Origin: a virus
Virus genome (UHGV): UHGV-0105037
Length of the DNA stretch: 19,273 nucleotides
Strand: one strand, 5' to 3'
Shown piece after piece: positions 1 to 19,273 of this stretch; the stretch's first letter is position 1; each line of letters starts with the position of its first letter. Made by a program: the position numbers and the translations under genes. Below the pieces are notes generated by a model. The model did no database searches. It was not told where the DNA came from and saw nothing but the letters and a program-made list of their open reading frames with translations.

Positions 1-49
1 TACAATGCGGGTTTGAGCGGCATAAATTACCACTGAAAGCCCTTAAACG

Positions 50-1063
50 TTACTCTACTGTGGACACTGTGTGGACACTCTCGGCCTCAGTACCACCTCT
101 TAGCGGATTAAGAGAAATGGCGTCCTGAAGGTACTCTGGCGCAAAATGAGCGTAAACCATAGTTTGCTCAATCCGCGTGTGACCTAGTATCCGTTGTAGC
201 GTGATAATACTTCCTCCATTAATCATGAAATGAGTGGCAAAGCTGTGCCTTAGTGCATGTGTGGCTTGCCCCATTGGCAAATCCGGTTTTATTGCTTTCA
301 TTGTTCGTCTGAAGCGAGGGTAATCAGCATCAGGGAATAAAAAACCTCGTTTGTTATCCGCGATCATTTTGGCAACAGCCTCTGAGATCGGGACGGTGCG
401 TGGTTTGTTTGTTTTCGTTTTAACAAACGTGACGCGGTTATGGATGATATTTTCTGCTTTCAAACGAGCTGCTTCTCCCCAACGTGCTCCAGTACTCAGG
501 CAAAGAATCGCAATCTTTTTGTTGTCGCCGTCAAGATCAGCAAGCAGTAAGGCAATTTCTTCCTGCGTGAGATAGCCTGTGTCTGGTTTTTCCTCCTTAA
601 GCCTTTTTGTCCCTCTGATAGGGTGCTCACCAAAGAATAACTCCGCTTCAATCAGGGCTGTAAACATGCCGCTAATACATGTTAAATCACGATTGATACT
701 CGAAGGTTTAATACCCTGACTTCTTCGGGTGGCGCAGTACTGGCTGATAAGCGATTTCGTAATTTGAAATGCGCATGGGTCATTCGTTATTTTTGTGAAG
801 ATTTCAATTTTTCCAAGATTAGATTTCCCATGCTCTTCGTGTTTACCCTTTAAATCCCACCAGATCTGTGTCAGCTCCGACAGACGTCGCTTGTCTGTTG
901 GTTTTGATAGCCATTCTTTATTGTGGTGGTTGTACAACGTGTATTTCTCGAAAGCGACAGCTTCGCTTTTCTTATCAAACTTCCTACGGATGCGTTTTCC
1001 ATTACGTCCAGTAGGGCGGATGTCCACTTCATATCGACCATCATCGAGTTTTTTGATTGCCAT
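50..1063 (-). CDS. int: Tyrosine integrase, P2 Int-like (337 aa)
   Basis: ORF translation has the C-terminal catalytic region of tyrosine recombinases (ARWGEAARL ... HALRHSFATHF ... LGHTRIEQTMVYAHF). Length and N-terminus (MAIKKLDDGRYEVDIRPTGRNGKRIRRKF) match P2 Int as I recall it. Position next to C/cox is the P2 arrangement. Confidence 0.93.
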   Translation of the reverse strand: MAIKKLDDGRYEVDIRPTGRNGKRIRRKFDKKSEAVAFEKYTLYNHHNKEWLSKPTDKRRLSELTQIWWDLKGKHEEHGKSNLGKIEIFTKITNDPCAFQITKSLISQYCATRRSQGIKPSSINRDLTCISGMFTALIEAELFFGEHPIRGTKRLKEEKPDTGYLTQEEIALLLADLDGDNKKIAILCLSTGARWGEAARLKAENIIHNRVTFVKTKTNKPRTVPISEAVAKMIADNKRGFLFPDADYPRFRRTMKAIKPDLPMGQATHALRHSFATHFMINGGSIITLQRILGHTRIEQTMVYAHFAPEYLQDAISLNPLRGGTEAESVHTVSTVE

Positions 1064-1117
1064 CAGAAAACCCTCCGAGTGGTGTGTTTTTTTGCGACTA
1101 CTAATCGCTTTTTTCGT

Positions 1118-1138
1118 GGTGGCTGAAATTTAGCCACC
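1118..1138. repeat. 7-bp inverted repeat (ggtggct-N7-agccacc) in the int-C intergenic region, preceded by a T-run
   Basis: Read directly: ggtggct at 1118-1124 and agccacc at 1132-1138; cgcttttttcg lies just upstream on the + strand. Not a canonical minus-strand terminator, because on that strand the hairpin is followed by A-rich sequence. Confidence 0.4.
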
Positions 1139-1178
1139 AATAGTAGGCACTTGTGATGAATATATTCACGATGAATTG

Positions 1179-1478
1179 TTAACCAGTCTTTTGACCGGAG
1201 TGGGGCGACGTTGTTTCGTTTTGCCCAAAGTGTGCGAGAGCGGGCGCAATTTGCCCGGACTCAGGAGCGATCTGATTGGTCATGAACCATAAAGTGTATT
1301 TGGTGAATTGTGGGGTCTGCAGGATGTTCATCATGACATCTGTTGGAGGTGTTGAACGACCACTTTCATAGTAACTCAGCGTGCCATACGGAACCCCTGT
1401 TAAATCAGCAAGTTGTTGTCTGCTCAAATACTCTGATTTTCGCATTAAGACTATCTTCTCGCTTATCGTGTTTGACAT
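1179..1478 (-). CDS. C: Immunity repressor C (99 aa, HTH)
   Basis: 99-aa ORF with an N-terminal HTH-like segment (SRQQLADLTGVPYGTLSYYESGRSTP). Size matches P2 C, and it is transcribed divergently from cox and co-directionally with int. Confidence 0.88.
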   Translation of the reverse strand: MSNTISEKIVLMRKSEYLSRQQLADLTGVPYGTLSYYESGRSTPPTDVMMNILQTPQFTKYTLWFMTNQIAPESGQIAPALAHFGQNETTSPHSGQKTG

Positions 1479-1511
1479 GGTGTTTAGATCTCAATAGTAT
1501 TTAGTTTAGAT
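1472..1511 (+). promoter_or_regulatory. Early promoter Pe with two direct-repeat C operators (O1, O2)
   Basis: Read directly: TTGACA at 1472-1477, a 17-bp spacer, then TAGTAT at 1495-1500. The 8-bp direct repeat GTTTAGAT occurs at 1482-1489 and 1504-1511, 22 bp centre to centre, flanking the -10. This matches the described P2 arrangement of two direct-repeat operators around the Pe -10. Confidence 0.6.
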
Positions 1512-1549
1512 GTAGATTGTTTAGTGCTTGGATGTGGGCACTAAAAGGC

Positions 1550-1570
1550 ATTATAAGACATTAAACGCAA
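1550..1570 (-). promoter_or_regulatory. Candidate Pc promoter (minus strand), face to face with Pe
   Basis: Minus-strand TATAAT (plus-strand attata at 1550-1555) lies between the C start (1478) and cox start (1593). No good -35 at 17-bp spacing; TTGCGT (plus 1565-1570) is only 9 nt away. Weak promoter call. Confidence 0.3.
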
Positions 1571-1592
1571 TTCATGAGGGCTAGAGGACGAC

Positions 1593-1868
1593 ATGAGCAA
1601 GCAAGTAACACTCATGACTGATGCGATTCCTTATCAGGAGTTCGCAAAACTAATAGGAAAATCGACAGGAGCGGTTCGTCGGATGATCGATAAAGGAAAG
1701 CTGCCTGTAATTGATATGACCGATCCACAATCAGCTTCAGGTCGTGCAGGTGAATATTGGGTATACCTTCCGGCATGGAATAACGGACTAAAACTGGCTT
1801 ATGAAAGCCGACCTAAAGAGATTCGTGACGGCTGGTTGATGTGGTTAGGTCTCGGTGAACCACGTTAA
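1593..1868 (+). CDS. cox: Cox excisionase / Pc repressor (91 aa)
   Basis: 91-aa ORF immediately downstream of Pe with an RBS (gagg at 1577-1580). Size and position match P2 Cox. Confidence 0.88.
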   Translation: MSKQVTLMTDAIPYQEFAKLIGKSTGAVRRMIDKGKLPVIDMTDPQSASGRAGEYWVYLPAWNNGLKLAYESRPKEIRDGWLMWLGLGEPR

Positions 1869-1878
1869 GGAGAACCGT

Positions 1879-2049
1879 ATGAATGAGCCTCGTTGTATTG
1901 CTCAGTTACTGCGTAACGAAAGCCCCAGGGCGATTGACTTCACCATCACCCACGGTAAGGGGCGTAAGGGAATCATTATCCGCACCAAAAAACAGAGTCC
2001 GTTAAAAAAGGCTCTGACCTTTCTGAAAAGCCGGAGGGTATGGAAATGA
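1879..2049 (+). CDS. Small early-operon protein (P2 orf78-like, 56 aa)
   Basis: Internal ATG at 1879 is preceded by AAGGAG (1867-1872) with 6-nt spacing, just after the cox stop. Basic small protein of unknown function. Confidence 0.55.
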   Translation: MNEPRCIAQLLRNESPRAIDFTITHGKGRKGIIIRTKKQSPLKKALTFLKSRRVWK

Positions 2050-2546
2050 CAGTGATGACGCTCAATCTCGTTGAAAAACAGCCAGCAGCTATGCGCCGGA
2101 TAATTGGTAAGCATCTTGCCGTTCCTCGCTGGCAGGATACATGTGATTATTATAATCAGATGATGGAGCGCGAACGGCTAACAGTTTGCTTTCATGCGCA
2201 GTTAAAACAGCGTCACGCAACGATGCGTTTTGAAGAAATGAACGACGTCGAACGTGAACGACTGGTATGTGCAATTGATGAATTGCGTGGGGCATTCTCA
2301 AAACGTCGTCAGGTTGGTGCAAGTGAGTATGCATATATTAGTTTCTTAACAGTCAGTCAGCGTCGTACTTTATTTATGCATGCCGGATTGACTGAAAAAG
2401 AATTTAACCAGCCATACTGGCGAATTAATGAAGAGTCATGTTACTGGCGTGATGCTTTATTCCGTGCATTACGTGAATTATTCAGCCTGTTTGAGTATGC
2501 ACCGACAATTCTGACGTCGGTAAAACCAGAGCAATATCTGCATTAA
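2046..2546 (+). CDS. B: Replication protein B (helicase-loader-like, about 166 aa)
   Basis: ORF 2040-2546; the second ATG at 2046 has GGAGGG (2033-2038) at 7-nt spacing. Size and position match P2 B. Confidence 0.82.
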   Translation: MTVMTLNLVEKQPAAMRRIIGKHLAVPRWQDTCDYYNQMMERERLTVCFHAQLKQRHATMRFEEMNDVERERLVCAIDELRGAFSKRRQVGASEYAYISFLTVSQRRTLFMHAGLTEKEFNQPYWRINEESCYWRDALFRALRELFSLFEYAPTILTSVKPEQYLH

Positions 2547-2609
2547 GTAATTAACCAGAGTTTTTAACGCACTTAATCGTGCGGGGCTTCTTTTTGCCTG
2601 GAGAAAGTT

Positions 2610-2834
2610 ATGCATACAGTTTCTGAAAATCAGTGCGGTAAATACGCATTACTGCTGCAACAGGCCAGAACCGAAGCACAGGCCGACGCTGCGACGCGCT
2701 TTTCTTCTCATCTTGATGCCATGATTCGCCACATCACAAAGGCGGAGTTATCCCGCGTGGAGATAGTCGAGCTGCTCAGTCAGGAGTCGGAAAAATTTCA
2801 CAATATCGGATTGTCTCGCGGGGAGGTGCTTTGA
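2610..2834 (+). CDS. Hypothetical early protein (P2 orf80-like, 74 aa)
   Basis: ORF with RBS ggag upstream (ctggagaaagttATG). Sits in the B-A interval, where P2 has four small ORFs with overlapping stop/start codons. Confidence 0.6.
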
Positions 2835-3136
2835 TGTCCTGTTCTCGTTCAGTTGTATTACTGAATAACGCCTTAAAAATCGCCGTTATGAAAAATGGCG
2901 ATTTGTCTCTTATTCAACTTGGTCTTGATAAAGAAAAACGCGAAATAACTGAGTCTGTTATCGCGATTTATCAGAACGAATTAAACCTCCTGTCTGATGT
3001 GGTCAATTTGCTTGTTAAACGCGCTGTGTTTCACAAGCAAATCTCCTCCGTGGATGAACTGACGAAATTAACGACAGAAATCGCCAGCTATTGCGCTGAT
3101 GAATTTAAAAACCTTAACGACAAAAGGAACTGGTAA
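2831..3136 (+). CDS. Hypothetical early protein (P2 orf81-like, 101 aa)
   Basis: Start overlaps the upstream stop (ATGA-type coupling); co-oriented small ORF in the early operon. Confidence 0.6.
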
Positions 3137-3360
3137 TGCCGGACAACGTAGATTTTATTCAGGCACAACAGGCTGAATTACTGGAGCGCCAGATTAACGC
3201 GGCAAGGGTAAAACATTGCGGTGCTTCTGCGATGGTTTGCGAAGAGTGTGACGCGCCAATACCTGCTGCCCGTCGTGCGGCTTATCCGTCAGCCACGCGT
3301 TGTGTTTCCTGTCAGTCAGTTTTTGAAGCAAAAAACAAACATTACCGGAGAACGGCATGA
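3136..3360 (+). CDS. DksA/TraR-family C4 zinc-finger protein (P2 orf82-like, 74 aa)
   Basis: Translation contains CEEC-N17-CVSC (CxxC...CxxC), typical of TraR/DksA-type zinc fingers. Start overlaps the upstream stop. Confidence 0.72.
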   Translation: MPDNVDFIQAQQAELLERQINAARVKHCGASAMVCEECDAPIPAARRAAYPSATRCVSCQSVFEAKNKHYRRTA

Positions 3361-3632
3361 GTATTCGTATTGAAATTGGCGAACGTTATGTCGTTACCAG
3401 TGACAGCTTTCAGTTTATTCTCCACGAGAAAAAGAGAGCTGAAAGCGGTAAAAACGCCGGTCAGGAATGGCTGGCGGTGGTTGGTTATTACCCGAAATTA
3501 AGCCAGCTCGTTTCCGGCCTGATGCATCACGATATTCTGACCGGAAGCGCAAAGTCTTTTGCTGATTTAAACGCGCAGGTTGAGCAACTCAGCAAGCGTT
3601 GTTCAGAGGCTTTTGGCTCATATGGCCGTTAA
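3357..3632 (+). CDS. Hypothetical early protein (P2 orf83-like, 91 aa)
   Basis: Co-oriented ORF with start overlapping the upstream stop; ends where A begins. Confidence 0.6.
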   Translation: MSIRIEIGERYVVTSDSFQFILHEKKRAESGKNAGQEWLAVVGYYPKLSQLVSGLMHHDILTGSAKSFADLNAQVEQLSKRCSEAFGSYGR

Positions 3633-5892
3633 AGCCTCCGGGCGTTTTGTCCCTCCGTCAGCATTTGCCGCAGGCACCGGTAAGACGTTTACCGGTGCTT
3701 ATGCATGGAACGCGCCACGCGAGGCCGTCGGGCGCGAAAGACCCCTTACACGTGACGAGATGCGTCAGGTGCAAGGTGTTTTATCCACGATTAACCGCCT
3801 GCCTTACTTTTTGCGCTCGCTGTTTACTTCACGCTATGACTACATCCGGCGCAATAAAAGCCCGGTGCACGGGTTTTATTTCCTCACATCCACTTTTCAG
3901 CGTCGTTTATGGCCGCGCATTGAGCGTGTGAATCAGCGCCATGAAATGAACACCGACGCGTCGTTGCTGTTTCTGGCAGAGCGTGATCACTATGCGCGCC
4001 TGCCGGGAATGAATGACAAGGAGCTGAAAAAGTTTGCCGCCCGTATCTCATCGCAGCTTTTCATGATGTATGAGGAACTCAGCGATGCCTGGGTGGATGC
4101 GCATGGCGAGAAAGAATCACTGTTTACGGATGAGGCTCAGGATCACCTGTATGGTCATGTTGCTGGCGCTGCACGAGCTTTCAATATTTCCCCTCTCTAC
4201 TGGAAAAAATACCGTAAAAGACAGATGACCACGAGGCAGGCATATTCTGCCATTGCCCGTCTGTTTAACGATGAGTGGTGGACTCATCAGCTTAAAGGCC
4301 AGCGTATGCGCTGGCATGAAGCGTTACTGATAGCTGTCGGGGAGGTCAATAAAGACCGTTCTCCTTATGCCAGTAAACACGCCATTCGTGATGTGCGTGC
4401 GCGCCGCCAGGCAAATCTGGAATTTCTTAAATCGTGTGACCTTGAAAACAGGGAAACCGGCGAGCGCATCGACCTTATCAGTAAGGTGATGGGCAGTATT
4501 TCTAATCCTGAAATTCGCCGGATGGAGCTGATGAACACCATTGCCGGTATTGAGCGTTACGCCGCTGCAGAGGGGGATGTGGGGATGTTTATCACGCTGA
4601 CCGCGCCGTCAAAGTATCACCCGACACGTCAGGTAGGAAAAGGCGAAAGTAAAACCGTGCAGCTTAATCACGGCTGGAACGATGAGGCATTTAATCCAAA
4701 GGATGCGCAGCGTTATCTCTGCCGTATCTGGAGCCTGATGCGCACGGCATTCAAGGATAATGATTTACAGGTCTACGGTTTGCGTGTCGTCGAGCCACAC
4801 CACGACGGAACGCCGCACTGGCATATGATGCTTTTTTGTAATTCACGCCAGCGTAACCAGATTATCGAAATCATGCGTCGCTATGCGCTCAAAGAGGATG
4901 GCGACGAAAGAGGAGCCGCGCGAAACCGTTTTCAGGCAAAACACCTTAACCGGGGCGGTGCTGCGGGATATATCGCGAAATACATTTCAAAAAACATCGA
5001 CGGCTATGCACTGGATGGTCAGCTCGATAACGACACCGGCAGGCCGCTGAAAGACACTGCAGCGGCTGTTACCGCATGGGCGTCAACGTGGCGCATCCCG
5101 CAATTTAAAACGGTTGGCCTGCCGACAATGGGGGCTTACCGTGAACTACGCAAATTGCCGCGCGGCGTCAGCATTGCTGATGAGTTTGACGAGCGCGTCG
5201 AGGCTGCACGCGCCGCCGCAGACAGTGGTGATTTTGCGTTGTATATCAGCGCGCAGGGTGGGGCAAATGTCCCGCGCGATTGTCAGACTGTCAGAGTCGC
5301 CCGTAGCCCGTCGGATGAAGTTAACGAGTACGAGGAAGAAGTCGAGAGAGTGGTCGGCATTTACGCGCCGCATCTCGGCGCGCGTCATATTCATATCACC
5401 AGAACGACGGACTGGCGCATTGTGCCGAAAGTGCCGGTCGTTGAGCCTTTGACTTTAAAAAGCGGCATCGCCGCGCCTCGGAGTCCTGTCAATAACTGTG
5501 GAAAGCTCACCGGTAGTGATGTTTCGTTACCGGCTCCCACACCTTCTGAGCACGCCGCCGCAGTGCTTAATCTGGTTGATGACGGTGTTATCGAATGGAA
5601 TGACCAGGAGGTCGTGAGGGCGCTCAGGGGCGCATTAAAACACGACCTGAGAACACCAAACCGTCAGCAAAGAAGCGGAAGCCCGTTAAAACCGCATGAA
5701 ATAGCGCCATCGGCCAGACTGACCCGGTCGGAACGAATGCAAATTACCCGTATCCGCGTTGACCTTGCTCAGAACGGTATCAGGCCGCAGCGATGGGAGC
5801 TTGAGGCGCTGGCGCGTGGGGCAACTGTAAATTACGACGGGAGAAGCTTCAGTTATCCTGTTATATGTGATTGGAGAGCGTATGAATTATGA
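3622..5892 (+). CDS. A: Replication initiation protein A (rolling-circle HUH endonuclease)
   Basis: Long ORF (770 aa from a TTG at 3580; first ATG at 3622 gives MAVKASGRF..., the N-terminus I recall for P2 A). Contains an HUH-like motif (GTPHWHMMLF) and paired tyrosines (AGYIAKYISK), as in P2 A / phiX174 gpA-type nickases. Confidence 0.9.
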   Translation: MAVKASGRFVPPSAFAAGTGKTFTGAYAWNAPREAVGRERPLTRDEMRQVQGVLSTINRLPYFLRSLFTSRYDYIRRNKSPVHGFYFLTSTFQRRLWPRIERVNQRHEMNTDASLLFLAERDHYARLPGMNDKELKKFAARISSQLFMMYEELSDAWVDAHGEKESLFTDEAQDHLYGHVAGAARAFNISPLYWKKYRKRQMTTRQAYSAIARLFNDEWWTHQLKGQRMRWHEALLIAVGEVNKDRSPYASKHAIRDVRARRQANLEFLKSCDLENRETGERIDLISKVMGSISNPEIRRMELMNTIAGIERYAAAEGDVGMFITLTAPSKYHPTRQVGKGESKTVQLNHGWNDEAFNPKDAQRYLCRIWSLMRTAFKDNDLQVYGLRVVEPHHDGTPHWHMMLFCNSRQRNQIIEIMRRYALKEDGDERGAARNRFQAKHLNRGGAAGYIAKYISKNIDGYALDGQLDNDTGRPLKDTAAAVTAWASTWRIPQFKTVGLPTMGAYRELRKLPRGVSIADEFDERVEAARAAADSGDFALYISAQGGANVPRDCQTVRVARSPSDEVNEYEEEVERVVGIYAPHLGARHIHITRTTDWRIVPKVPVVEPLTLKSGIAAPRSPVNNCGKLTGSDVSLPAPTPSEHAAAVLNLVDDGVIEWNDQEVVRALRGALKHDLRTPNRQQRSGSPLKPHEIAPSARLTRSERMQITRIRVDLAQNGIRPQRWELEALARGATVNYDGRSFSYPVICDWRAYEL

Positions 5893-5985
5893 GATTGTGA
5901 TAAAAAGTAAATAATTAATATAATGCAATTGCTTAACTGTTTTAAAAGGGACAACGTAGTTGTGAACTATATTGTCCCGGGAGTA

Positions 5986-7041
5986 TTAATTTTTAAATAT
6001 GGATTGTATGTATTCTATAGTGCTATCTTTAGCTCTGATGTCTTTTAAAGTGTTATTTATGAAATCTATTATTCTGTCATTACTTAATAGTGGCGATAAC
6101 GCATAACATGTTGTTGTGAATGTCATGACGTCACTAAAGCTTAGTGAAACACCTTTTGTCGCAGCGTTCTCAATCGCAAGAGACTCATCAATATCTAAGT
6201 TTGTTGCTCTTGGCCCTTTAAGGAAGATAACTTTTGAAATCCCGGATGCAGATGCTTTTGAAACGGCGTGATTAACATCTTGATAATTAAATGGTTTGTC
6301 TTTCACTTCTATAGAAAGGAAAACTATATCATCATGATATACATCTATGTCCAGTATCTCTTTTGAGGAGCTACCGGCCTGATTGACGGGATGTGCTTTT
6401 ATTATCCATCCTCTTTGTTCACCTAATAAATGTAACGAAATTGCGGCAGCAATCGCGCATGTTTCTCCATCACAAGGATGAGATATAATATTATAAATAA
6501 TCTTATGGAAATCAAAATTAATTGAGTTCGGCGTTATAACTCTATTGGTTCGCTGTAGGGTAAAATATAATGCAATAACAAGCATTTCATAAGCTAAGGT
6601 TTGGGTTGTTGCTGCATGTAATATATCAATTGAAAGTTGTTGTAAAACCTTATCATTTCCTCTGCGCACAGGGTTATCAGAGGAGTGGAGCATGTAACGA
6701 GCTGGTTTATTTAGAAATGGCTCATTTGATGCGCCTAACTTACCCTCTAAAAATGGGCCTTCTACTTTGCCTACTATTACCGAATGACATAAACTCCTTG
6801 CATCATAGGCTCCGTCTACGGGGGCATTAGCTTGTAAAGCCAGAGGGTTAACTCTAGGGTCTGTTGCTTTTGCAAGTAAACCAGTAATAAGTATATATCT
6901 GTATGTAAGGTGGGTGCCTAAAATTACATTTTGAATGGAGACCCATTGATTATTTGTTTTGTAATCAGTTAATTTTTTTGCATCGTTGATTGCATTTATA
7001 ATTACATTATAGGCTTGCTCATGATTTACTAATACTTTCAT
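5986..7041 (-). CDS. Uncharacterized 351-aa cargo protein; candidate restriction endonuclease or defence effector with a possible PD-(D/E)xK-like motif
   Basis: ORF in a visibly AT-rich segment unlike the flanking phage DNA. Strong RBS (AAGGA, 5 nt before the ATG at 7041). Its start overlaps the stop of the upstream HTH gene by 23 bp. Motif HDDIVFLSIEVKDK could be a D...(D/E)xK nuclease core. I do not recognise the family. Confidence 0.75.
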   Translation of the reverse strand: MKVLVNHEQAYNVIINAINDAKKLTDYKTNNQWVSIQNVILGTHLTYRYILITGLLAKATDPRVNPLALQANAPVDGAYDARSLCHSVIVGKVEGPFLEGKLGASNEPFLNKPARYMLHSSDNPVRRGNDKVLQQLSIDILHAATTQTLAYEMLVIALYFTLQRTNRVITPNSINFDFHKIIYNIISHPCDGETCAIAAAISLHLLGEQRGWIIKAHPVNQAGSSSKEILDIDVYHDDIVFLSIEVKDKPFNYQDVNHAVSKASASGISKVIFLKGPRATNLDIDESLAIENAATKGVSLSFSDVMTFTTTCYALSPLLSNDRIIDFINNTLKDIRAKDSTIEYIQSIFKN

Positions 7042-7333
7042 AGGTGTCCTTTAGTAAGATATCCATTGGTAGACCTAATCGGCTTGCAACCACCTCTAAT
7101 AATTCAAATAGTTCTAAAGCATCTAATCGCCTTTCAAAGCTTTCGATTTTAGATATATCTGATTGTGATAATCCTAGAAAAATGGCCAATTCTGACTGCG
7201 AAAGAGAAGCTTCTTTGCGTAGTTTGGTGAGAAGCTGGACTAGGCACCTGTATCTATGATCATGTATAGTTGGTTGTCGTTTTGCCATGTGGTTTAGAAG
7301 GTGATTGATTGTGTGTCGATCCTTACCTATCAT
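7019..7333 (-). CDS. XRE/Cro-family HTH transcriptional regulator (candidate controller protein); alternative start at 7288
   Basis: Translation contains a typical XRE HTH (LSQSELAIFLGLSQSDISKIE). Translationally coupled to the downstream 351-aa gene and divergent from the methyltransferase. ATG at 7333 gives 104 aa; the internal ATG at 7288 gives 89 aa. Confidence 0.72.
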   Translation of the reverse strand: MIGKDRHTINHLLNHMAKRQPTIHDHRYRCLVQLLTKLRKEASLSQSELAIFLGLSQSDISKIESFERRLDALELFELLEVVASRLGLPMDILLKDTYESISKS

Positions 7334-7371
7334 TGGTTTTATTCCAAAATCGAATAATTGGTGCTAAAGAA

Positions 7372-8463: not shown

Positions 8464-8619
8464 AACGGATCACATTTTCAAACCGATGGATGCAGAATTT
8501 AACATTGCTGCATGAGTTTGCATCTTGAAATCATAAGCTGTACTGCTTAGCTTGACCAGAATTGATGTGGGTAAGAAGTGGTTATGCACCCGCATTAAAA
8601 CCGCCCCATTAAGCGGGCG

Positions 8620-8638
8620 GGCGAGGCGGGGAAAGCAC
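8620..8638. other. cos: cos cohesive-end site (P2-type 19-nt GGCGAGGCGGGGAAAGCAC)
   Basis: Exact 19-mer ggcgaggcggggaaagcac read at 8620-8638. This is the P2 cohesive-end sequence as I recall it. It sits where expected, between the end of the early/cargo region and Q, and is preceded by the palindrome ccgccc-atta-agcgggcgg. Confidence 0.6.
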
Positions 8639-8780
8639 TGCGCGCTGGCGGTGGTGCTGATTTTATTTTTTCAGCGTCTGAGCGCGTCGTGATGGCGTTT
8701 AGATTGTTCGCCGGGGCGTTGGTGTGTCTGCGGGCTGTTTTGTGCGGTGGTGAGCGTGTGAGGGCGTGATGGCGGGGTGT

Positions 8781-8802
8781 AAAAAAGCCGCCCACAGGCG
8801 GC
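8781..8802 (-). terminator. Rho-independent terminator downstream of Q (minus strand)
   Basis: GC hairpin gccgcc-caca-ggcggc (8787-8802), followed on the minus strand by a T-run (plus-strand aaaaaa at 8781-8786), immediately 3' of the Q stop (8808-8810). Confidence 0.6.
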
Positions 8803-8807
8803 GATGT

Positions 8808-11614: not shown

Positions 11615-11787
11615 GAATACCTCGCCGTGATGAATACACGGCAAGGCTACTGAGTCGCGCCCCGCGATTCGCTAAGGTGCTGTTGTGTCAGTGATAAGCC
11701 ATCCGGGACTGATGGCGGAGGATGCGCATCGTCGGGAAACTGATGCCGACATGTGACTCCTCTAATCACTATTCAGGACTCCTGACA
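11615..11787. promoter_or_regulatory. Divergent late-promoter region between P and O (expected Ogr-dependent promoters)
   Basis: 173-bp intergenic region between divergent late operons. Contains the inverted repeat ccatc-N7-gatgg (11699-11715) and TGT-rich sequence (tgttgtgtca, 11681-11690). I could not place an exact TGT-N12-ACA activator site. Confidence 0.35.
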
Positions 11788-12642
11788 ATGGCAAAAAAAG
11801 TCTCAAAATTCTTTCGTATCGGCGTTGAGGGTGACACCTGTGACGGGCGTGTCATCAGTGCGCAGGATATTCAGGAAATGGCCGAAACCTTTGACCCGCG
11901 AGTCTATGGTTGCCGCATTAACCTGGAACATCTGCGCGGCATCCTGCCTGACGGTATTTTTAAGCGTTATGGCGATGTGGCCGAACTGAAGGCCGAAAAG
12001 ATTGACGATGATTCGGCGCTGAAAGGCAAATGGGCGCTGTTTGCGAAAATCACCCCGACCGATGACCTTATCGCGATGAACAAGGCCGCGCAGAAGGTCT
12101 ACACCTCAATGGAAATTCAGCCGAACTTTGCCAACACCGGCAAATGTTATCTGGTGGGTCTGGCCGTCACCGATGACCCGGCAAGCCTCGGCACGGAATA
12201 CCTGGAATTCTGCCGCACGGCAAAACACAACCCCCTGAACCGCTTCAAATTAAGCCCTGAAAACCTGATTTCAGTGGCAACGCCTGTTGAGCTGGAATTT
12301 GAAGACCTGCCTGAAACCGTGTTCACCGCCCTGACCGAAAAGGTGAAATCCATTTTTGGCCGCAAACAGGCCAGCGATGACGCCCGTCTGAATGACGTGC
12401 ATGAAGCGGTGACCGCTGTTGCTGAACATGTGCAGGAAAAACTGAGCGCCACTGAGCAGCGCCTCGCTGAGATGGAAACCGCCTTTTCCGCACTTAAGCA
12501 GGAGGTGACTGACAGGGCGGATGAAACCAGTCAGGCATTCACCCGCCTGAAAAACAGTCTCGACCACACCGAAAGTCTGACCCAGCAGCGCCGCAGTAAA
12601 GCCACCGGCGGTGGCGGTGACGCCCTGATGACGAACTGCTAA
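11788..12642 (+). CDS. O: Capsid scaffolding protein O (284 aa)
   Basis: ORF from the ATG at 11788 (MAKKVSKFFRIGVEGD...). The C-terminal half is helix-rich (LSATEQRLAEMETAFSALKQEV), typical of scaffolds. Divergent from P as in P2. Confidence 0.85.
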   Translation: MAKKVSKFFRIGVEGDTCDGRVISAQDIQEMAETFDPRVYGCRINLEHLRGILPDGIFKRYGDVAELKAEKIDDDSALKGKWALFAKITPTDDLIAMNKAAQKVYTSMEIQPNFANTGKCYLVGLAVTDDPASLGTEYLEFCRTAKHNPLNRFKLSPENLISVATPVELEFEDLPETVFTALTEKVKSIFGRKQASDDARLNDVHEAVTAVAEHVQEKLSATEQRLAEMETAFSALKQEVTDRADETSQAFTRLKNSLDHTESLTQQRRSKATGGGGDALMTNC

Positions 12643-12700
12643 CCGGCGTCAGTCAGTCCGGGAAAACCTTCACGATTAACCCTTAATTTCAGGAAAAACT

Positions 12701-12871
12701 ATGCGCCAGGAAACCCGCTTTAAATTTAATGCCTACCTGTCCCGTGTTGCCGAACTGAACGGCATCGACGCCGGTGATGTGTCGAAAAAATTCACCGTTG
12801 AACCGTCGGTCACCCAGACCCTGATACGGAATTGCAGCGTAACGCGCTGGAGTGCGCAGGATGTGAGCTGA
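12701..12871 (+). pseudogene. N: Truncated major capsid gene N: first 41 or so codons, then out-of-frame fusion
   Basis: ATG at 12701 with RBS (aggaaaaact). Translation MRQETRFKFNAYLSRVAELNGIDAGDVSKKFTVEPSVTQTL matches the P2 N N-terminus, then switches to unrelated residues (IRNCSVTRWSAQDVS) and stops at 12869-12871. A full capsid protein would be about 357 aa. Confidence 0.7.
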
Positions 12872-13377
12872 TTTTTGAGGATAAAATCAGCGGCACGAAG
12901 TCCGACCGACCGGGACTGAAAAAACTGCTCAGGACATTATCGGAGGGGGATACACTGGTGGTCTGGAAGCTGGACCGGCTGGGGCGTAGTATGCGGCATC
13001 TGGTCATTCTGGTTGAGGAACTGCGCGAACGCGGCGTTAATTTTCGCAGCCTGACGGATGCTATTGATACCAGCACACCGATGGGGCGTTTTTTCTTTCA
13101 TGTGATGGGTGCCCTGGCTGAAATGGAGCGAGAACTCATTGTCGAGCGGACACGCGCCGGACTGGAAGCGGCCAGAGCCAAAGGTCGTATTGGTGGCAGA
13201 CGACCGAAACTCACCGCGAGTGAGTGGGAGCAGGCCGGGCGTTTGCTGGCTGCAGGGGAGTCACGTCAACGCGTGGCACTGATTTTTGATATTGGCCTGT
13301 CCACGCTCTATAAAAAATTTCCCTCATCAGCGACAAAGAATAAATTGTGTCATCCCTTAGCCAACCGGGACAAATAG
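12832..13377 (+). pseudogene. 5'-truncated serine DNA invertase (Hin/Gin/Pin/Cin family) lacking the catalytic N-terminus
   Basis: Translation (LQRNALECAGCELIFEDKISGTKSDRPGLKKLL ... MGRFFFHVMGALAEMERELIVERT ... GGRRPKL ... STLYKKF) is a typical resolvase/invertase from about residue 20 onward. There is an in-frame stop at 12799-12801 and no ATG near the homology boundary, so the first ~20 residues, including the catalytic serine, are missing. Confidence 0.78.
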
Positions 13378-13436
13378 CCTGACATCTCCGGCACAACTGA
13401 AAATACCACTCACCCATTAACCACGGAGTTAAACGG

Positions 13437-14003
13437 ATGAGTGACTATCATCACGGCGTGCAGGTGCTGGAGATTAACGACGGCACCCGCGTCATTTCCA
13501 CCGTATCCACTGCCATTGTCGGCATGGTCTGCACGGCCAGCGATGCGGATGCGGAAACCTTCCCCCTCAATAAACCGGTGCTGATTACCAATGTGCAGAG
13601 TGCAATTGCAAAGGCCGGTAAAAAAGGCACGCTGGCGGCATCGTTGCAGGCCATCGCCGACCAGTCAAAACCGGTCACCGTTGTCGTACGTGTGGAAGAC
13701 GGCACCGGCGACGACGAGGAAACGAAACTCGCGCAGACCGTTTCCAATATCATCGGCACCACCGACGAAAACGGTCAGTACACCGGACTGAAAGCCCTGC
13801 TGGCGGCGGAGTCGGTAACCGGTGTTAAACCGCGTATTCTCGGCGTGCCGGGACTGGATACCAAAGAGGTGGCTGTTGCACTGGCATCAGTCTGTCAGAA
13901 GCTGCGTGCTTTCGGATATATCAGCGCATGGGGCTGTAAGACCATTTCCGAGGTGAAAGCCTACCGCCAGAATTTCAGCCAGCGTGAGCTGATGGTCATC
14001 TGA
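13437..14003 (+). pseudogene. FI: Truncated tail sheath gene FI (188 codons of about 396)
   Basis: Good RBS (acggag) and start ([25 protein letters not shown]...) matching the P2 sheath N-terminus. The ORF stops abruptly at ...QRELMVI, and the downstream sequence continues as FII in another frame. Confidence 0.72.
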
Positions 14004-14392
14004 ACGGCAGCGCACCGGTAGACCTCGGCCTTGATGACGATGCGCTGTCAATGGAGTGGTCGCTCGGTGGTTTCCCGGATTCGGTTATCTGGGAGCTTTA
14101 CGCCGCAACCGGTGTGGATGCTGTGCCGATTCGTTTTGCAGGCTCTTACCAGCGTGACGATACCGGCGAAACGGTGGCCGTTGAAGTGGTCATGCGTGGA
14201 CGTCAGAAAGAAATCGACACCGGCGAGGGTAAACAGGGAGAAGACACCGAGTCGAAAATCTCCGTGGTCTGCACCTATTTCCGGCTGACGATAGACGGTA
14301 AGGAGCTGGTCGAAATCGACACCATCAACATGATTGAGAAGGTGAACGGCGTCGACCGGCTGGAGCAACACCGCCGCAATATCGGCCTGTGA
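14004..14392 (+). pseudogene. FII: 5'-truncated tail tube gene FII (C-terminal ~130 codons, no start or RBS)
   Basis: In the mod-2 frame the sequence right after the FI stop reads NGSAPVDLGLDDDALSMEWSLGGFPDSVIWELY ... EQHRRNIGL, which I recognise as the middle and C-terminus of the P2 tail tube protein. The only ATG (14051) has no RBS. Confidence 0.68.
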
Positions 14393-14399
14393 TTTTCAT

Positions 14400-14448: not shown

Positions 14449-14724
14449 ATGAACAAAGAAAACGTCATTACCCTGGACAATCCGGTCAAACGTGGTGAGC
14501 AGGTTATCGAACAGGTCACGCTGATGAAACCCAATGCCGGGACGCTGCGCGGTGTCAGTCTGGCTGCAGTCGCGAACTCCGAAGTCGATGCACTGATTAA
14601 AGTGCTGCCGCGCATGACGGCACCGATGCTGACCGAGCAGGAAGTCGCCGCGCTGGAACTGCCTGACCTTGTGGCGCTGGCCGGTAAGGTGGTCGGTTTT
14701 TTGTCGCCGAACTCGGTGCAGTGA
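14449..14724 (+). CDS. E: Tail assembly chaperone E (91 aa)
   Basis: ORF with RBS (gtgagaaaacc ATG). Matches P2 gpE in size and position immediately upstream of the tape measure gene. Confidence 0.85.
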   Translation: MNKENVITLDNPVKRGEQVIEQVTLMKPNAGTLRGVSLAAVANSEVDALIKVLPRMTAPMLTEQEVAALELPDLVALAGKVVGFLSPNSVQ

Positions 14725-14876
14725 CGTTTCCGAAAAATCTCTCGGTCGATGACCTGATGGCGGATGTGGCAGTGATATTTCACTGGCCGCCATCAGAACT
14801 GTATCCCATGAGCCTGACCGAACTCATCACATGGCGCGAAAAGGCGCTCCGGCGAAGCGGAAACACGAATGAGTAA
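14449..14876 (+). CDS. E': E+E' frameshift fusion product (programmed -1 frameshift at the TTTTTTG slippery heptamer, 14697-14703)
   Basis: Slippery heptamer T TTT TTG sits in the E frame near its 3' end. The -1 frame is open from 14703 to a TAA at 14874-14876, overlapping the T start. This is the conserved chaperone frameshift, analogous to lambda G/GT. Confidence 0.6.
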
Positions 14877-17316
14877 CAATGTAAAATTACAGGTATTGCT
14901 AAGGGCTGTTGACCAGGCATCCCGTCCGTTTAAATCCATCCGCACAGCGAGCAAATCGCTGTCGGGGGATATCCGGGAAACACAAAAATCACTGCGCGAG
15001 CTGAACGGTCAGGCATCCCGTATTGAGGGATTCCGCAAGACCAGTGCACAGCTCGCCGTGACTGGTCATGCACTTGAAAAGGCACGGCAGGAGGCCGAAG
15101 CCCTTGCCACACAGTTTAAAAACACCGAACGTCCGACCCGTGGTCAGGCGAAAGTGCTGGAATCCGCAAAGCGTGCGGCGGAGGACTTACAGGCGAAATA
15201 TAACCGCCTGACAGATTCCGTTAAACGCCAGCAGCGGGAACTGGCCGCTGTGGGAATTAATACCCGCAATCTTGCACATGATGAGCAGGGACTGAAAAAC
15301 CGTATCAGTGAAACCACCGCACAGCTTAACCGTCAGCGCGACGCGCTGGCGCGTGTCAGTGCGCAACAGGCAAAACTTAACGCAGTCAAACAGCGTTATC
15401 AGGCCGGAAAGGAACTGGCCGGAAATATGGCCTCAGTAGGCGCTGCCGGTGTGGGGATTGCGGCGGCGGGAACGATGACCGGAGTTAAGTTGCTGATGCC
15501 CGGTTATGAGTTTGCGCAGAAAAACTCAGAATTGCAGGCCGTGCTCGGAGTGGCAAAAGACTCCGCCGAAATGACCGCACTACGCAAACAGGCGCGCCAG
15601 CTCGGCGACAATACCGCCGCCTCGGCGGATGATGCGGCCGGTGCACAGATAATCATCGCGAAAGCGGGTGGGGATGTTGATGCCATTCAGGCGGCAACGC
15701 CGGTCACGCTGAATATGGCGCTGGCGAACCGCCGCACGATGGAAGAAAACGCCGCCCTGCTGATGGGGATGAAATCCGCCTTTCAGCTTTCAAACGATAA
15801 GGTCGCTCATATCGGGGATGTTCTCTCCATGACGATGAACAAAACCGCCGCCGATTTTGACGGCATGAGCGATGCGCTGACCTATGCCGCACCTGTGGCA
15901 AAAAATGCCGGTGTCAGCATTGAAGAAACTGCCGCAATGGTCGGGGCGCTGCATGATGCAAAAATCACAGGCTCAATGGCGGGGACGGGAAGCCGTGCCG
16001 TGTTAAGCCGCCTGCAGGCACCGACGGGAAAAGCATGGGATGCACTCAAAGAGCTTGGAGTGAAAACCTCAGACAGCAAGGGAAACACCCGGCCAATATT
16101 TACCATTCTGAAAGAAATGCAGGCCAGTTTTGAGAAAAACCGGCTCGGTACTGCCCAGCAGGCTGAATACATGAAAACTATTTTCGGGGAGGAGGCCAGC
16201 TCAGCCGCCGCCGTGCTGATGACTGCCGCCTCAACCGGAAAGCTGGACAAACTGACCGCTGCGTTTAAAGCCTCAGACGGGAAGACCGCCGAGCTGGTAA
16301 ATATCATGCAGGACAACCTAGGCGGTGACTTTAAAGAGTTTCAGTCCGCTTATGAGGCAGTGGGGACTGACCTGTTTGACCAGCAGGAAGGCGCGCTGCG
16401 TAAGCTCACGCAGACGGCCACAAAGTATGTGTTAAAACTCGACGGCTGGATCCAGAAAAACAAATCACTGGCGTCAACCATCGGCATCATTGCCGGTGGC
16501 GCGCTGGCGCTGACTGGCATCATCGGTGCCATTGGCCTCGTAGCCTGGCCGGTTATCACCGGCATCAATGCCATCATCGCGGCAGCAGGCGCAATGGGGG
16601 CAGTCTTCACGACGGTTGGCAGTGCTGTTATGACCGCCATCGGGGCTATTAGCTGGCCGGTTGTGGCCGTGGTGGCCGCAATTGTCGCCGGGGCGTTGCT
16701 TATCCGTAAATACTGGGAGCCTGTCAGCGCATTCTTTGGCGGTGTGGTTGAAGGGCTGAAAGTGGCATTTGCGCCGGTGGGGGAACTGTTCACGCCACTT
16801 AAGCCGGTGTTTGACTGGCTGGGCGAAAAGTTACAGGCCGCGTGGCAGTGGTTTAAAAACCTGATTGCCCCGGTCAAAGCCACCCAGGACACCCTGAACC
16901 GTTGCCGTGATACTGGCGTCATGTTCGGGCAGGCACTGGCTGACGCGCTGATGCTGCCGCTTAATGCGTTCAACAAACTGCGCAGCGGTATTGACTGGGT
17001 ACTGGAAAAACTCGGCGTCATCAACAAAGAGTCTGACGCACTTGACCAGACTGCCGCCAGAACTCATGCCGCCACGTATGGCACAGGTGGTTATATTCCG
17101 GCGACCAGCTCTTATGCAGGCTATCAGGCTTACCAGCCGGTCACGGCACCGGCTGGTCGCTCTTATGTGGACCAGAGTAAAAACGAATATCACATCAACC
17201 TGACGGGCGGTACTGCGCCGGGGACACAGCTTGACCGCCAGTTACAGGATGCGCTCGAAAAATACGAGCGGGATAAACGTGCGCGCGCCCGTGCCAGCAT
17301 GATGCATGACGGTTAA
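14869..17316 (+). CDS. T: Tail tape measure protein T (815 aa)
   Basis: Long ORF with a coiled-coil-rich N-terminal half and a Gly/Ala-rich hydrophobic segment (IIAGGALALTGIIGAIGLVAWPVITGINAIIAAAGAMG). Follows E/E' as in all long-tailed phages. Confidence 0.9.
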   Translation: MSNNVKLQVLLRAVDQASRPFKSIRTASKSLSGDIRETQKSLRELNGQASRIEGFRKTSAQLAVTGHALEKARQEAEALATQFKNTERPTRGQAKVLESAKRAAEDLQAKYNRLTDSVKRQQRELAAVGINTRNLAHDEQGLKNRISETTAQLNRQRDALARVSAQQAKLNAVKQRYQAGKELAGNMASVGAAGVGIAAAGTMTGVKLLMPGYEFAQKNSELQAVLGVAKDSAEMTALRKQARQLGDNTAASADDAAGAQIIIAKAGGDVDAIQAATPVTLNMALANRRTMEENAALLMGMKSAFQLSNDKVAHIGDVLSMTMNKTAADFDGMSDALTYAAPVAKNAGVSIEETAAMVGALHDAKITGSMAGTGSRAVLSRLQAPTGKAWDALKELGVKTSDSKGNTRPIFTILKEMQASFEKNRLGTAQQAEYMKTIFGEEASSAAAVLMTAASTGKLDKLTAAFKASDGKTAELVNIMQDNLGGDFKEFQSAYEAVGTDLFDQQEGALRKLTQTATKYVLKLDGWIQKNKSLASTIGIIAGGALALTGIIGAIGLVAWPVITGINAIIAAAGAMGAVFTTVGSAVMTAIGAISWPVVAVVAAIVAGALLIRKYWEPVSAFFGGVVEGLKVAFAPVGELFTPLKPVFDWLGEKLQAAWQWFKNLIAPVKATQDTLNRCRDTGVMFGQALADALMLPLNAFNKLRSGIDWVLEKLGVINKESDALDQTAARTHAATYGTGGYIPATSSYAGYQAYQPVTAPAGRSYVDQSKNEYHINLTGGTAPGTQLDRQLQDALEKYERDKRARARASMMHDG

Positions 17317-17330
17317 GGAGGTAACGAAAA

Positions 17331-17810
17331 ATGATGCTCGCGTTAGGTATGTTTGTTTTTATGCGCCAGACGCTGCCACACCAGACCATGCAGCGTGAAT
17401 CAGATTATCGCTGGCCGTCAAATTCCCGTATCGGCAAACGGGATGCCTTTCAGTTTCTCGGTACGGGTGAGGAAAACATCACGCTTGCCGGTGTGCTTTA
17501 TCCTGAACTGACCGGCGGAAAGCTGACGATGACCACGCTCAGACTGATGGCAGAGGAAGGCCGGGCGTGGCCGTTGCTGGATGGCACCGGCATGATTTAC
17601 GGCATGTATGTCATCAGCAAGGTGAGTGAAACAGGGAGTATTTTCTTTGCAGACGGCACACCCCGGAAAATTGATTTTACGCTGTCACTCACCCGCGTTG
17701 ATGAATCACTGGCCGCGCTTTATGGCGATATCGGTAAACAGGCGGAATCGCTCATCGGTAAGGCTGGCAGTATGGCGACCAGATTCACGGGTATGACGGG
17801 GGCGGGATAA
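17331..17810 (+). CDS. U: Tail protein U (159 aa)
   Basis: ORF with strong RBS (taaggaggtaacgaaaa ATG); P2 gene order T-U-D. Confidence 0.85.
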   Translation: MMLALGMFVFMRQTLPHQTMQRESDYRWPSNSRIGKRDAFQFLGTGEENITLAGVLYPELTGGKLTMTTLRLMAEEGRAWPLLDGTGMIYGMYVISKVSETGSIFFADGTPRKIDFTLSLTRVDESLAALYGDIGKQAESLIGKAGSMATRFTGMTGAG

Positions 17811-18973
17811 TGCTGGATACGCTGACATTTGATGCAGGCAGTACGCTGACGCCGGATTACATGCTGATGCTCGACAGCAGGGATATTACCGGCAATATCA
17901 GCGACCGTCTGATGAGCATGACTCTGACGGATAACCGGGGCTTTGAGGCTGACCAGCTTGATATTGAACTGAACGATGCCGACGGGCAGGTCGGACTGCC
18001 GGTTCGTGGCGCTGTCCTGACGGTGTATATCGGCTGGAAAGGTTTTGCCTTGGTATGCAAAGGGAAATTTACCGTTGATGAGGTTGAACACCGGGGCGCG
18101 CCGGATGTGGTCACCATCCGCGCCCGGAGTGCAGATTTCCGCGGGACGCTCAATTCCCGCCGTGAAGGTTCATGGCATGACACCACGCTCGGTGCGATTG
18201 TTGAGGCGATAGCCTCCCGTAACAGGCTGGAAGCCAGTGTCGCTCCGTCACTGGCCGGAATTAAAATCCCGCACATCGACCAGTCGCAGGAGTCTGATGC
18301 GAAATTCCTGACCCGTCTTGCAGAACGCAACGGCGGTGAGGTGTCGGTAAAAATGGGAAAACTGTTGTTTCTCAAAGCGGGGCAGGGGGTGACGGCCAGC
18401 GGTAAAAAAATCCCGCAGGTCACCATAACCCGCAGCGACGGCGACCGCCATCATTTTGCGATTGCTGACCGTGGAGCCTATACCGGTGTAACGGCAAAGT
18501 GGTTACACACCAAAGACCCGAAACCGCAAAAGCAGAAGGTAAAACTGAAACGCAAAAAGAAAGAGAAACACCTGCGCGCACTGGAGCACCCGAAAGCGAA
18601 ACCAGTCACGCAGAAGAAAGCGCCAAAAGTACCGGAAGCGCGCGAAGGTGAATACATGGCTGGTGAGGCTGACAATGTTTTTGCCCTGACCACGGTATAT
18701 GCCACGAAAGCACAGGCCATGCGTGCCGCTCAGGCGAAGTGGGATAAGCTGCAACGGGGTGTAGCGGAGTTCTCCATCATCCTGGCTACCGGTCGTGCAG
18801 ATATTTACACGGAAACGCCGGTCAAAGTGTCAGGCTTTAAGCGCGTCATAGACGAGCAGGACTGGACAATCACTAAGGTGACACATTTTCTGAATAATAG
18901 CGGCTTCACGACGTCCTTGGAGCTTGAGGTCAGGCTTTCTGATGTGGAGTACGAAACAGAAGATGATGAGTGA
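17810..18973 (+). CDS. D: Tail protein D (387 aa)
   Basis: Start ATG overlaps the U stop (TAATG); has a Lys-rich basic stretch (KPQKQKVKLKRKKKEKHLR). Size and position match P2 D. Confidence 0.85.
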   Translation: MLDTLTFDAGSTLTPDYMLMLDSRDITGNISDRLMSMTLTDNRGFEADQLDIELNDADGQVGLPVRGAVLTVYIGWKGFALVCKGKFTVDEVEHRGAPDVVTIRARSADFRGTLNSRREGSWHDTTLGAIVEAIASRNRLEASVAPSLAGIKIPHIDQSQESDAKFLTRLAERNGGEVSVKMGKLLFLKAGQGVTASGKKIPQVTITRSDGDRHHFAIADRGAYTGVTAKWLHTKDPKPQKQKVKLKRKKKEKHLRALEHPKAKPVTQKKAPKVPEAREGEYMAGEADNVFALTTVYATKAQAMRAAQAKWDKLQRGVAEFSIILATGRADIYTETPVKVSGFKRVIDEQDWTITKVTHFLNNSGFTTSLELEVRLSDVEYETEDDE

Positions 18974-19054
18974 TGTGTTTTATTTATGTATTTGTTTTAT
19001 ATGTATAAATTAACTAAAATGGCACCATCAACAAAATCGGAAGAGGTGCTCGCG

Positions 19055-19273
19055 ATGTTTCATTGTCCTTTATGCCAGCATGCCGCACATGCGCGTACAA
19101 GCCGCTATATCACTGACACGACAAAAGAGCGTTATCACCAGTGTCAGAACGTGAATTGCAGCGCCACGTTCATCACTTATGAGTCGGTACAGAGATACAT
19201 CGTGAAGCCGGGAGAAGTCCACGCCGTAAGGCCGCACCCGTTGCCGTCAGGGCAGCAAATTATGTGGATGTAA
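19055..19273 (+). CDS. ogr: Late gene transcriptional activator Ogr (zinc finger, 72 aa)
   Basis: The ORF begins at 18986, but the internal ATG at 19055 has RBS aagagg and gives MFHCPLCQHAAHARTSRYITDTTKERYHQCQNVNCSATF..., with CxxC ... CxxxxC zinc-finger cysteines and the 72-aa length of P2 Ogr. The stop is the last codon of the window. Confidence 0.85.
   Translation: MFHCPLCQHAAHARTSRYITDTTKERYHQCQNVNCSATFITYESVQRYIVKPGEVHAVRPHPLPSGQQIMWM

Follow-up and report, generated by a model that had tools for sequence, protein, structure and literature searches.

A P2 prophage of Escherichia coli crippled by two successive deletions and carrying a SacI-family restriction–modification cassette

The UHGV virus genome UHGV-0105037, a 19,273-nt stretch of DNA analyzed here at its full length and referred to below as the window, holds a crippled prophage related to phage P2. 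We conclude that the element is very probably a chromosomal P2 prophage of Escherichia coli, inserted between yegR and yegQ, that was disabled recently by two successive deletions (D1 and D2) arising through illegitimate recombination. The damage consists of two separate microhomology deletions, which leave four gene remnants at positions 12701–14392. All 21 of the 21 retained genes are full length and free of internal stops, judged with coordinates transferred from two intact relatives. An initial annotation, made from the sequence without database searches, had described a defective P2-like prophage that keeps a lysogeny and replication core, the Q-P-O and E-T-U-D genes and defense cargo, and that cannot form virions alone; this description holds. 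It had also implied a single clean loss, which our alignments replace with two deletions and with four remnants that it did not list (N', 'invertase, FI' and 'FII).

Results

Two microhomology deletions and the remnants they left

The initial annotation had proposed a comparison with intact P2-like prophages of related strains, and it was alignment to two of these (L001, from E. coli 00-3076, and L003, from E. coli KL53) that gave both junctions and their microhomologies. In the BLAST comparison with L001, window positions 1–12825 aligned at 99.1% identity, after which the alignment jumped to the FI region and then, a second time, to FII. A segment of 531 bp without a match in L001 corresponds to a serine recombinase of the Hin/Gin/Cin/Pin type that lacks its N terminus. 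The remnants and junctions are as follows.

12701–12825, plus strand: N', the first 41 codons of the major capsid gene (Pfam Phage_cap_P2, positions 1–37 only; the L001 alignment stops at 12825)
12824–12826, no strand: D1 junction, N codon 42 to invertase codon 14, with the 2-bp microhomology AT (three-way alignment)
12826–13377, plus strand: 'invertase, a serine recombinase gene minus codons 1–13 (MLIGYVRVSTNDQ) (Pfam Resolvase from profile position 19, and HTH_7)
13437–14003, plus strand: FI', the first 188 codons of the tail sheath gene (Pfam Gp18_domIII_N and partial Phage_sheath_1; alignment)
14000–14003, no strand: D2 junction, FI codon 189 to FII codon 43, out of frame, with the 2-bp microhomology TG (alignment)
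14003–14392, plus strand: 'FII, the last 129 codons of the tail tube gene (Pfam Phage_tube, positions 55–165; translation)

D1 removed ~10.55 kb, a size taken from L003 coordinates (9447–20000) and about the same in a reconstruction that joins two partial siblings (L024 and L027). Lost with this segment were most of N, together with M, L, X, Y, K, lysABC, R, S, V, W, J, I, H and G, the invertible segment and the 5' end of the invertase gene; from M to G, these genes are absent from the window relative to both P2 and L001. The open reading frame (ORF) of N' continues out of frame to 12871. The 13 codons missing from the invertase include the catalytic Ser9, and what is left is 99.9 to 100% identical to the intact genes of L003 and of three sibling contigs (L027, L033 and L035). 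In the intact KL53 prophage, a 197-aa invertase lies between an inverted G'/H' fiber segment and FI. The window remnant shares its Resolvase and HTH_7 domains with the Hin/Gin/Cin/Pin invertases that switch tail-fiber genes, but it is dead: D1 took away the catalytic serine, the invertible segment and the DNA upstream of the gene.

D2 removed 764 bp, the intact version of which is present in an otherwise 100%-identical contig (L016). The FI' frame is terminated after codon 188 by a TGA that the junction itself created, and 'FII, which has no start codon of its own, contains an internal ATG at 14051. Relative to its own intact siblings, the element lost ~11.3 kb in the two steps. The shortfall of about 14 kb given in the initial annotation is thus correct relative to P2 (19,431 bp for the excised circle versus 33,593 bp) and too large relative to the element's own ancestor. 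Its list of missing functions (capsid, small terminase, lysis, baseplate and fiber genes) also stands, save that the capsid gene is not cleanly absent, 41 codons of N remaining. With N, M, L, X, Y, K, R, S, V, W, J, I, H, G, FI and FII deleted or truncated by D1 and D2, the element is not a viable P2-like phage. The four ORFs at 12701–14392 are better labeled as pseudogene fragments.

The exact 188-aa FI' product also occurs elsewhere. It arises by nonsense at codon 189 (TGA in L007, TAG in L008), by deletions that start from the same nucleotide and run into T (L006) or into U (L013), and on four contigs (among L010–L014) that end at codon 189. We considered FI codon 189 as a deletion hotspot and rejected the idea as unproven, the look-up returning only products that end exactly there. 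The 90% cluster of the FI' product contains 1,868 truncated fragments of FI that vary widely in length and occur on similar numbers of contigs, and the recurrence of the 188-aa product is probably a matter of ascertainment.

D1 preceded D2, and both are recent

Contigs bearing the junctions were found by exact look-up of D1- and D2-specific junction products in public assemblies. D1 is present on eight contigs from European Nucleotide Archive (ENA) and Logan assemblies, and the D1 and D2 pair occurs in ERZ28596679 scaffold_74 (and three similar places) and in ERR1190732. Exact searches for the D1 junction returned no match in GTDB representative genomes and none in IMG/VR, and megablast against complete RefSeq E. 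coli genomes found no carrier.

The order of events can be read from one of these contigs (L016; ERZ15609685 NODE_743), which is 100.000% identical to the window over 11,302 + 5,273 bp and carries D1, with FI (396 aa) and FII (172 aa) intact. A further contig (L017) also carries D1 and shows no break at the D2 junction in FI; the contig ends inside FI. Because a D1-only form that is 100% identical to the window keeps both FI and FII, the sequences indicate that D1 came first and D2 later, with no substitution in between.

Intact siblings at the same integration site cover the element from either side. Three contigs of draft genomes that cover the left half (L024–L026) have the same A allele and differ from the window by eight to nine mismatches (99.93% identity) over positions 1–12825; they keep N, M, L, X, Y and K, occupy the same site, and carry the same restriction–modification (R-M) gene set. 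Four contigs that cover the right half (L027, L029, L033 and L035) have the same T allele, are 100% identical over 12824–14002, and still carry H and G, the inverted G'/H' segment, the invertase gene, and FI and FII. Public data accordingly hold an intact sibling, a D1-only form and a D1+D2 form, a clean and datable series of stepwise prophage decay in which the D1-only form matches the D1+D2 form at 100% outside D2 and the intact siblings match at 99.9 to 100% over the parts covered. The simplest view of the undamaged Q, P, O, E, T, U and D genes is that they are leftovers without the time to decay, best explained by recency and not by function, because the D1-only form is 100% identical and the window's exact int allele is confined to five contigs, all of this lineage.

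Host flanks and attachment cores

The whole window is 100% identical to part of ENA ERZ28596679 scaffold_74 (165 kb). Past int, the left flank of this scaffold carries yegR, yegS and a sugar-alcohol operon; past ogr, the right flank carries yegQ, yegP, baeR, baeS and mdtD. Because host genes directly follow on both sides, the missing genes are not adjacent to the window. The alternative raised in the initial annotation, that the window belongs to a larger intact prophage, is not borne out: the neighbors are yegR and yegS to the left and yegQ, yegP and baeRS to the right.

The initial annotation had placed an attachment core within the first 49 bp. The 27-bp P2 core (AAAAAATAAGCCCGTGTAAGGGAGATT) has no match in the window, even with up to three mismatches allowed. 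The duplicated core that it suggested seeking in the host flanks is present in the 100%-identical contig: the attL core lies 31 to 57 bp left of base 1 and is exact and identical to the P2 core, and the attR core lies 102 to 128 bp past the window end (L028, ~14507–14533) with one substitution. The prophage boundaries should be moved outward, 57 bp to the left and 128 bp to the right. With both cores the prophage measures 19,458 bp, and the excised circle would be 19,431 bp, ~58% of the P2 genome (33,593 bp).

The attR core reads AAAAAATTAGCCC..., versus AAAAAATAAGCCC... in attL and in P2 attP, the change being A to T. The D1-only contig (L016) has the same change, and the attR of L001 is exact. 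Left of attL, the host flank (CGATGTGGTCAATGGAAGACGGTGACCAG; ~60 to 105 bp left of base 1, L036 reverse complement) resembles CGATGTGGTCAATGTGTGGACGTGACCAG, the phage P-arm Int-binding sequence that adjoins attR, a resemblance that suggests a vestige of an older P2 integration at the same site. A parDE toxin–antitoxin pair is located between yegQ and yegP in E. coli 00-3076 (L001, 33548–36147) and in several sibling contigs; the source strain is without this pair at yegQ-yegP (L028, 14678–16518).

The retained genes and sites are those of P2

The window is collinear with P2 in prophage order (NC_001895), and its edges fall 49 nt past the int stop and exactly at the ogr stop, in line with the int-to-ogr span first annotated. 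Every gene then listed as kept (int, C, cox, B, A, Q, P, O, E/E', T, U, D and ogr) is present at full length, and so is cos. DNA identity to P2 in the shared regions is 97 to 98%. At the protein level, C, Cox, orf78, O and Ogr are 100% identical to their P2 counterparts, Int is 99.4% identical and A is 95.8% identical. Several P2 sites show no change at all, namely cos, the ori nick region, the Pe/O1/O2/Pc switch, the Ogr site of pP/pO and the E/E' slip site. Pfam supports the P2 gene assignments through the families named in the lists below; early-operon gene names were taken from the L001 annotation. The attachment arm and the lysogeny and replication functions are as follows.

1–84, no strand: attachment region, right (P') arm (window alignment to P2 runs from 24413)
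50–1063, minus strand: int, tyrosine integrase, 337 aa, intact (Pfam Int_N and Phage_integrase; 99.4% to P2 Int)
1179–1478, minus strand: C, immunity repressor, 99 aa (Pfam HTH_3; 100% to P2 C)
1472–1575, no strand: Pe/Pc switch with operators O1 and O2 (identical to P2 25884–25923 and 25962–25987)
1593–1868, plus strand: cox, excisionase and Pc repressor (Pfam Phage_Cox, 5.5e-48; 100% to P2 Cox)
1879–3632, plus strand: early operon with orf78, B (2046–2546), orf80, orf81, orf82 (TraR/DksA type) and orf83, intact (96–100% to P2)
3622–5892, plus strand: A, replication initiator and nickase, 756 aa (Pfam Phage_GPA, 1.2e-122; 95.8% to P2 A)
5468–5492, inside A: ori nick region (identical to P2)

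The P2 Cox-binding region spans 74 nt, 60 of which fall in this P' arm, and the first 49 bp of the window belong to that region; the Int P'-arm site at 58–84 is identical to that of P2. B has no Pfam match, yet is 99.4% identical to P2 B. The packaging, head and tail functions that survive are these.

8620–8638, plus strand: cos, 19-nt cohesive end GGCGAGGCGGGGAAAGCAC (identical to P2 cosL/cosR; flanks conserved over 8592–8680)
8808–9842, minus strand: Q, portal protein, intact (Pfam Phage_portal; 99.1% to P2 Q)
9842–11614, minus strand: P, terminase large (ATPase) subunit, intact (Pfam Terminase_5, Terminase_6N and Terminase_6C; 99.7% to P2 P)
11678–11708, no strand: Ogr activator-binding site of the divergent late promoters pP/pO (identical to P2 3057–3087)
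11788–12642, plus strand: O, capsid scaffold/protease, intact (Pfam Phage_GPO, 5.6e-110; 100% to P2 O)
14449–14876, plus strand: E (14449–14724) and E+E', tail assembly chaperones (Pfam Phage_TAC_7)
inside 14694–14714: E/E' -1 slip site (region identical to P2)
14869–17316, plus strand: T, tape measure protein, 815 aa, intact (Pfam PhageMin_Tail; 98.5% to P2 T)
17331–17810, plus strand: U, tail protein, intact (Pfam Phage_P2_GpU; 98.7% to P2)
17810–18973, plus strand: D, tail protein, intact (Pfam Phage_GPD; 98.7% to P2)
19055–19273, plus strand: ogr, late-gene activator, 72 aa (Pfam Ogr_Delta; 100% to P2 Ogr)

The element agrees with P2 (Peduovirus) in gene order and P2-family proteins, immunity type, cos ends, A-dependent origin and duplicated 27-bp core, integration being judged on the 100%-identical contig (attL exact, attR with one mismatch, host genes on either side). 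Its immunity type is that of P2 itself, because C and Cox are 100% identical and the regulatory sites are unchanged. By its sequence, the element is strictly a P2 prophage, of P2 immunity type, and not merely P2-like.

The int-to-ogr gene order is likewise that of P2, and the differences are confined to what was lost or exchanged. Relative to P2, the window element is ~14.2 kb shorter and lacks N (bar 41 codons), M, L, X, Y, K, lysABC, R, S, orf30, V, W, J, I, H, G and Z/fun, as well as the 3' part of FI and the 5' quarter of FII. The invertase remnant stands in the place of P2 Z/fun, and a SacI-family R-M cassette stands in the place of P2 orf91, tin and old. The window contains no tRNA genes, and an Rfam gathering scan of the window found no noncoding RNA.

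A rare R-M cassette in the gpA-gpQ hotspot

The locus between A and cos/Q is a published P2 defense hotspot, which in P2 houses old and tin (PMC9122126). In the window it is occupied by three genes, across which the GC content falls to 0.36–0.41.

5986–7041, minus strand: type II restriction endonuclease (REase) of the SacI family, 351 aa (Pfam RE_SacI, 1.9e-76; PADLOC REase_II, 2.3e-252, full length)
7019–7288, minus strand: small helix-turn-helix (HTH) protein, probably the R-M controller (C protein) (Pfam HTH_3; weak PADLOC HTH_VI and Control_protein matches)
7309–8463, plus strand: C5-cytosine DNA methyltransferase (m5C) (Pfam DNA_methylase, 1.3e-66; PADLOC MTase_II, 1.9e-79)

The RE_SacI profile is covered at positions 4–276 of 276, and this full-length REase adjoins a DNA methyltransferase, the arrangement of a SacI-family type II R-M system. 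The small HTH gene overlaps the 5' end of the REase gene. Start codons differ by pipeline: the HTH protein is called at 89 or 104 aa, and the methyltransferase is called from TTG 7309, ATG 7417 or others. The longest calls of the divergent HTH and methyltransferase genes (7019–7417) overlap head to head, and at least one of the two start calls is therefore too long.

At 99% identity or more, the cassette (window 5893–8619) is present in 20 of 5,426 complete E. coli genomes, always as a single, chromosomal copy, and megablast found none among 50,697 phage records. The cassette is a rare allele of the hotspot.

We also considered avoidance of GAGCTC, the site to be expected of a SacI-like specificity, as evidence of what the cassette recognizes. 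The window contains no such site where ~3.5 would be expected, and P2, which has no cassette, L001 and L003 likewise contain none; 9 to 17 of the 64 palindromic hexamers are missing from these genomes. The candidate was rejected, because a site that is equally absent from cassette-free P2, like many palindromic hexamers, is uninformative on the recognition sequence. General avoidance of palindromic hexamers is strong, with 17 of 64 missing in the window and 9 of 64 in the 33.6-kb P2 genome, and several of the missing hexamers (GGCGCC, CGGCCG and GAGCTC among them) had 5 to 14 sites expected.

Discussion

The history that best accounts for these data begins with a P2 relative of ~30.7 kb that carried the SacI-family R-M cassette in the cos-proximal gpA-gpQ hotspot and, upstream of FI, an invertible tail-fiber segment with its DNA invertase, neither of which P2 itself has. 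In the first step, D1 took N, M, L, X, the lysis cassette, R, S, the baseplate and fiber genes and the invertible segment. In the second, D2 fused the sheath gene FI out of frame to the tube gene FII.

This structure is seen directly in the sequences; its functional consequences are predictions. An element so reduced is predicted to be unable to build capsids or tails, to cut cos or to lyse the cell. Cleavage of cos would fail because M is gone, and neither virions nor host lysis would be expected because the capsid, small terminase, head completion, lysis, baseplate, fiber, sheath and tube genes are gone. C is probably still expressed and would confer immunity to P2, and the R-M cassette is probably expressed as well and would restrict unmodified incoming DNA. 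By analogy with other type II systems, the cassette may also penalize loss of the element, a form of post-segregational stabilization. Excision and replication after derepression could still occur, because Int, Cox, the att sites, A, B and ori are intact. The suggestions of the initial annotation, that such an element may excise and replicate and can go on providing immunity and restriction, are thus reasonable in view of the intact genes and sites. The SOS-induction test put forward in the initial annotation is unsuitable for this element, whose repressor is 100% identical to P2 C. P2 is not SOS inducible (PMC8440029), and the test would therefore probably be negative for an uninformative reason.

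Several points weigh against this reconstruction. Immunity, restriction, excision and replication are predictions from undamaged sequence. One substitution separates the attR core from attL and may affect excision. The source is a metagenome scaffold, and a second intact P2-like prophage may be present elsewhere in the same cell. The size of D1 rests on siblings (L003, and L024 joined to L027) and not on the true ancestor.

The decayed element could instead be a domesticated defense island, kept by selection through R-M addiction and P2 immunity, for which gene loss was adaptive for the host. In its favor, the element has lost its lysis and virion genes but kept its cargo and repressor undamaged, other prophages at yegR/yegQ have been grounded independently (L037 with the same cassette, L002 with different cargo), and surveys find conserved defense genes in defective P2 elements (PMC13586616). 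Yet zero substitutions have accumulated since the D1-only stage, which leaves no time for visible selection, and Q, P, O, E, T, U and D, which would be useless to such an island, are as intact as the useful genes. The lineage is also rare, with its int allele on five contigs and its cassette in only those 20 complete genomes. We regard adaptive domestication as unlikely.

A related proposal is that the grounded prophage remains a mobile carrier of defense genes, which a hetero-immune P2-like phage could excise, amplify and occasionally package, or whose hotspot cargo such a phage could acquire by recombination. The survival of cos, int and cox, A and ori, and usable att sites is the reason for entertaining it. 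If it were true, grounded P2 prophages would form a reservoir that continually exchanges the R-M cassette; we consider it quite improbable.

Very improbable, in our judgment, is a functional, helper-dependent mini-P2, packaged and spread in the manner of a satellite by a co-resident or superinfecting P2-like phage. Such an element would keep cos, int and cox, A and ori, and Q, P and O to this end; cos, int, cox, A, B and ori are intact here, and the exact attL and the attR with one difference also suit it. The 19,431-bp circle, however, is only ~58% of the P2 genome, and a dimer would come to ~116% of capacity. From what is known of cos packaging generally, a circle of ~58% would badly under-fill the P2 head. 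Packaging by a helper is unlikely because the circle is of this size. Pfam found no P4-type size-determination or helper-manipulation domain in the proteins scanned, and a helper sharing the P2 immunity of the element would be homo-immune and repressed. The 100% identity to the D1-only precursor points to recent accidents and not to an evolved design, and the lineage is found at one chromosomal site only.

Two known classes of phage-derived element were also tried and rejected. A P4-like satellite would be recognized by an alpha primase-helicase, sid/psu, delta, epsilon and a genome of ~11 kb; the scanned proteins of this 19.4-kb element are all of P2 or R-M type in Pfam (B by its identity to P2 B). 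An R-type tailocin does not fit an element in which the sheath and tube genes are truncated, the baseplate, fiber and lysis genes are deleted, and the portal, terminase and scaffold genes are kept.

That the deletions are assembly artifacts, a metagenome assembler having collapsed or misjoined an intact P2-like prophage, is extremely improbable: the 100%-identical source is a metagenome scaffold and the D1 junction is missing from complete RefSeq E. coli genomes, GTDB representatives and IMG/VR, but the same D1 recurs on eight contigs whose naming (scaffold_, NODE_, k141_ and Logan) indicates different samples and assemblers, the D1 and D2 pair is found in at least two samples, a D1-only intermediate exists, and the junctions share 2 bp only, far under any assembler k-mer.

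The recently crippled P2 prophage is thus of an already known and ordinary kind, a grounded P2 with a defense cassette in a known hotspot. Defective P2-like prophages with conserved defense genes have already been described (PMC13586616). The element has little importance beyond annotation, its modest value being the well-resolved decay series to which it belongs.

Other prophages at the same site place the lesion in context. That of E. coli 00-3076 (L001), also at the yegR/yegQ site, carries the same R-M cassette (99.9% identical) with its morphogenesis, lysis and tail genes complete. A same-site P2 prophage of E. coli 13TMH22 (L037, 1897–4171), whose cassette is 100% identical to that of the window, was grounded by IS3 inside int; within the reach of this locus, its genes for capsid, packaging and lysis are undamaged. 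E. coli isolateD (L002) has a defective P2 backbone at yegR/yegQ with its hotspot cargo and lysogeny genes intact, but its lesion differs from that of the window, being a single M'-'FII deletion (FII codon 48) at a GGTA microhomology, and its cargo is different. This deletion arose independently of those in the window and is present in three genomes (H37–H39), isolateD (L002, 18520–18620) and two others; its right end lies ~16 bp from that of the window's D2.

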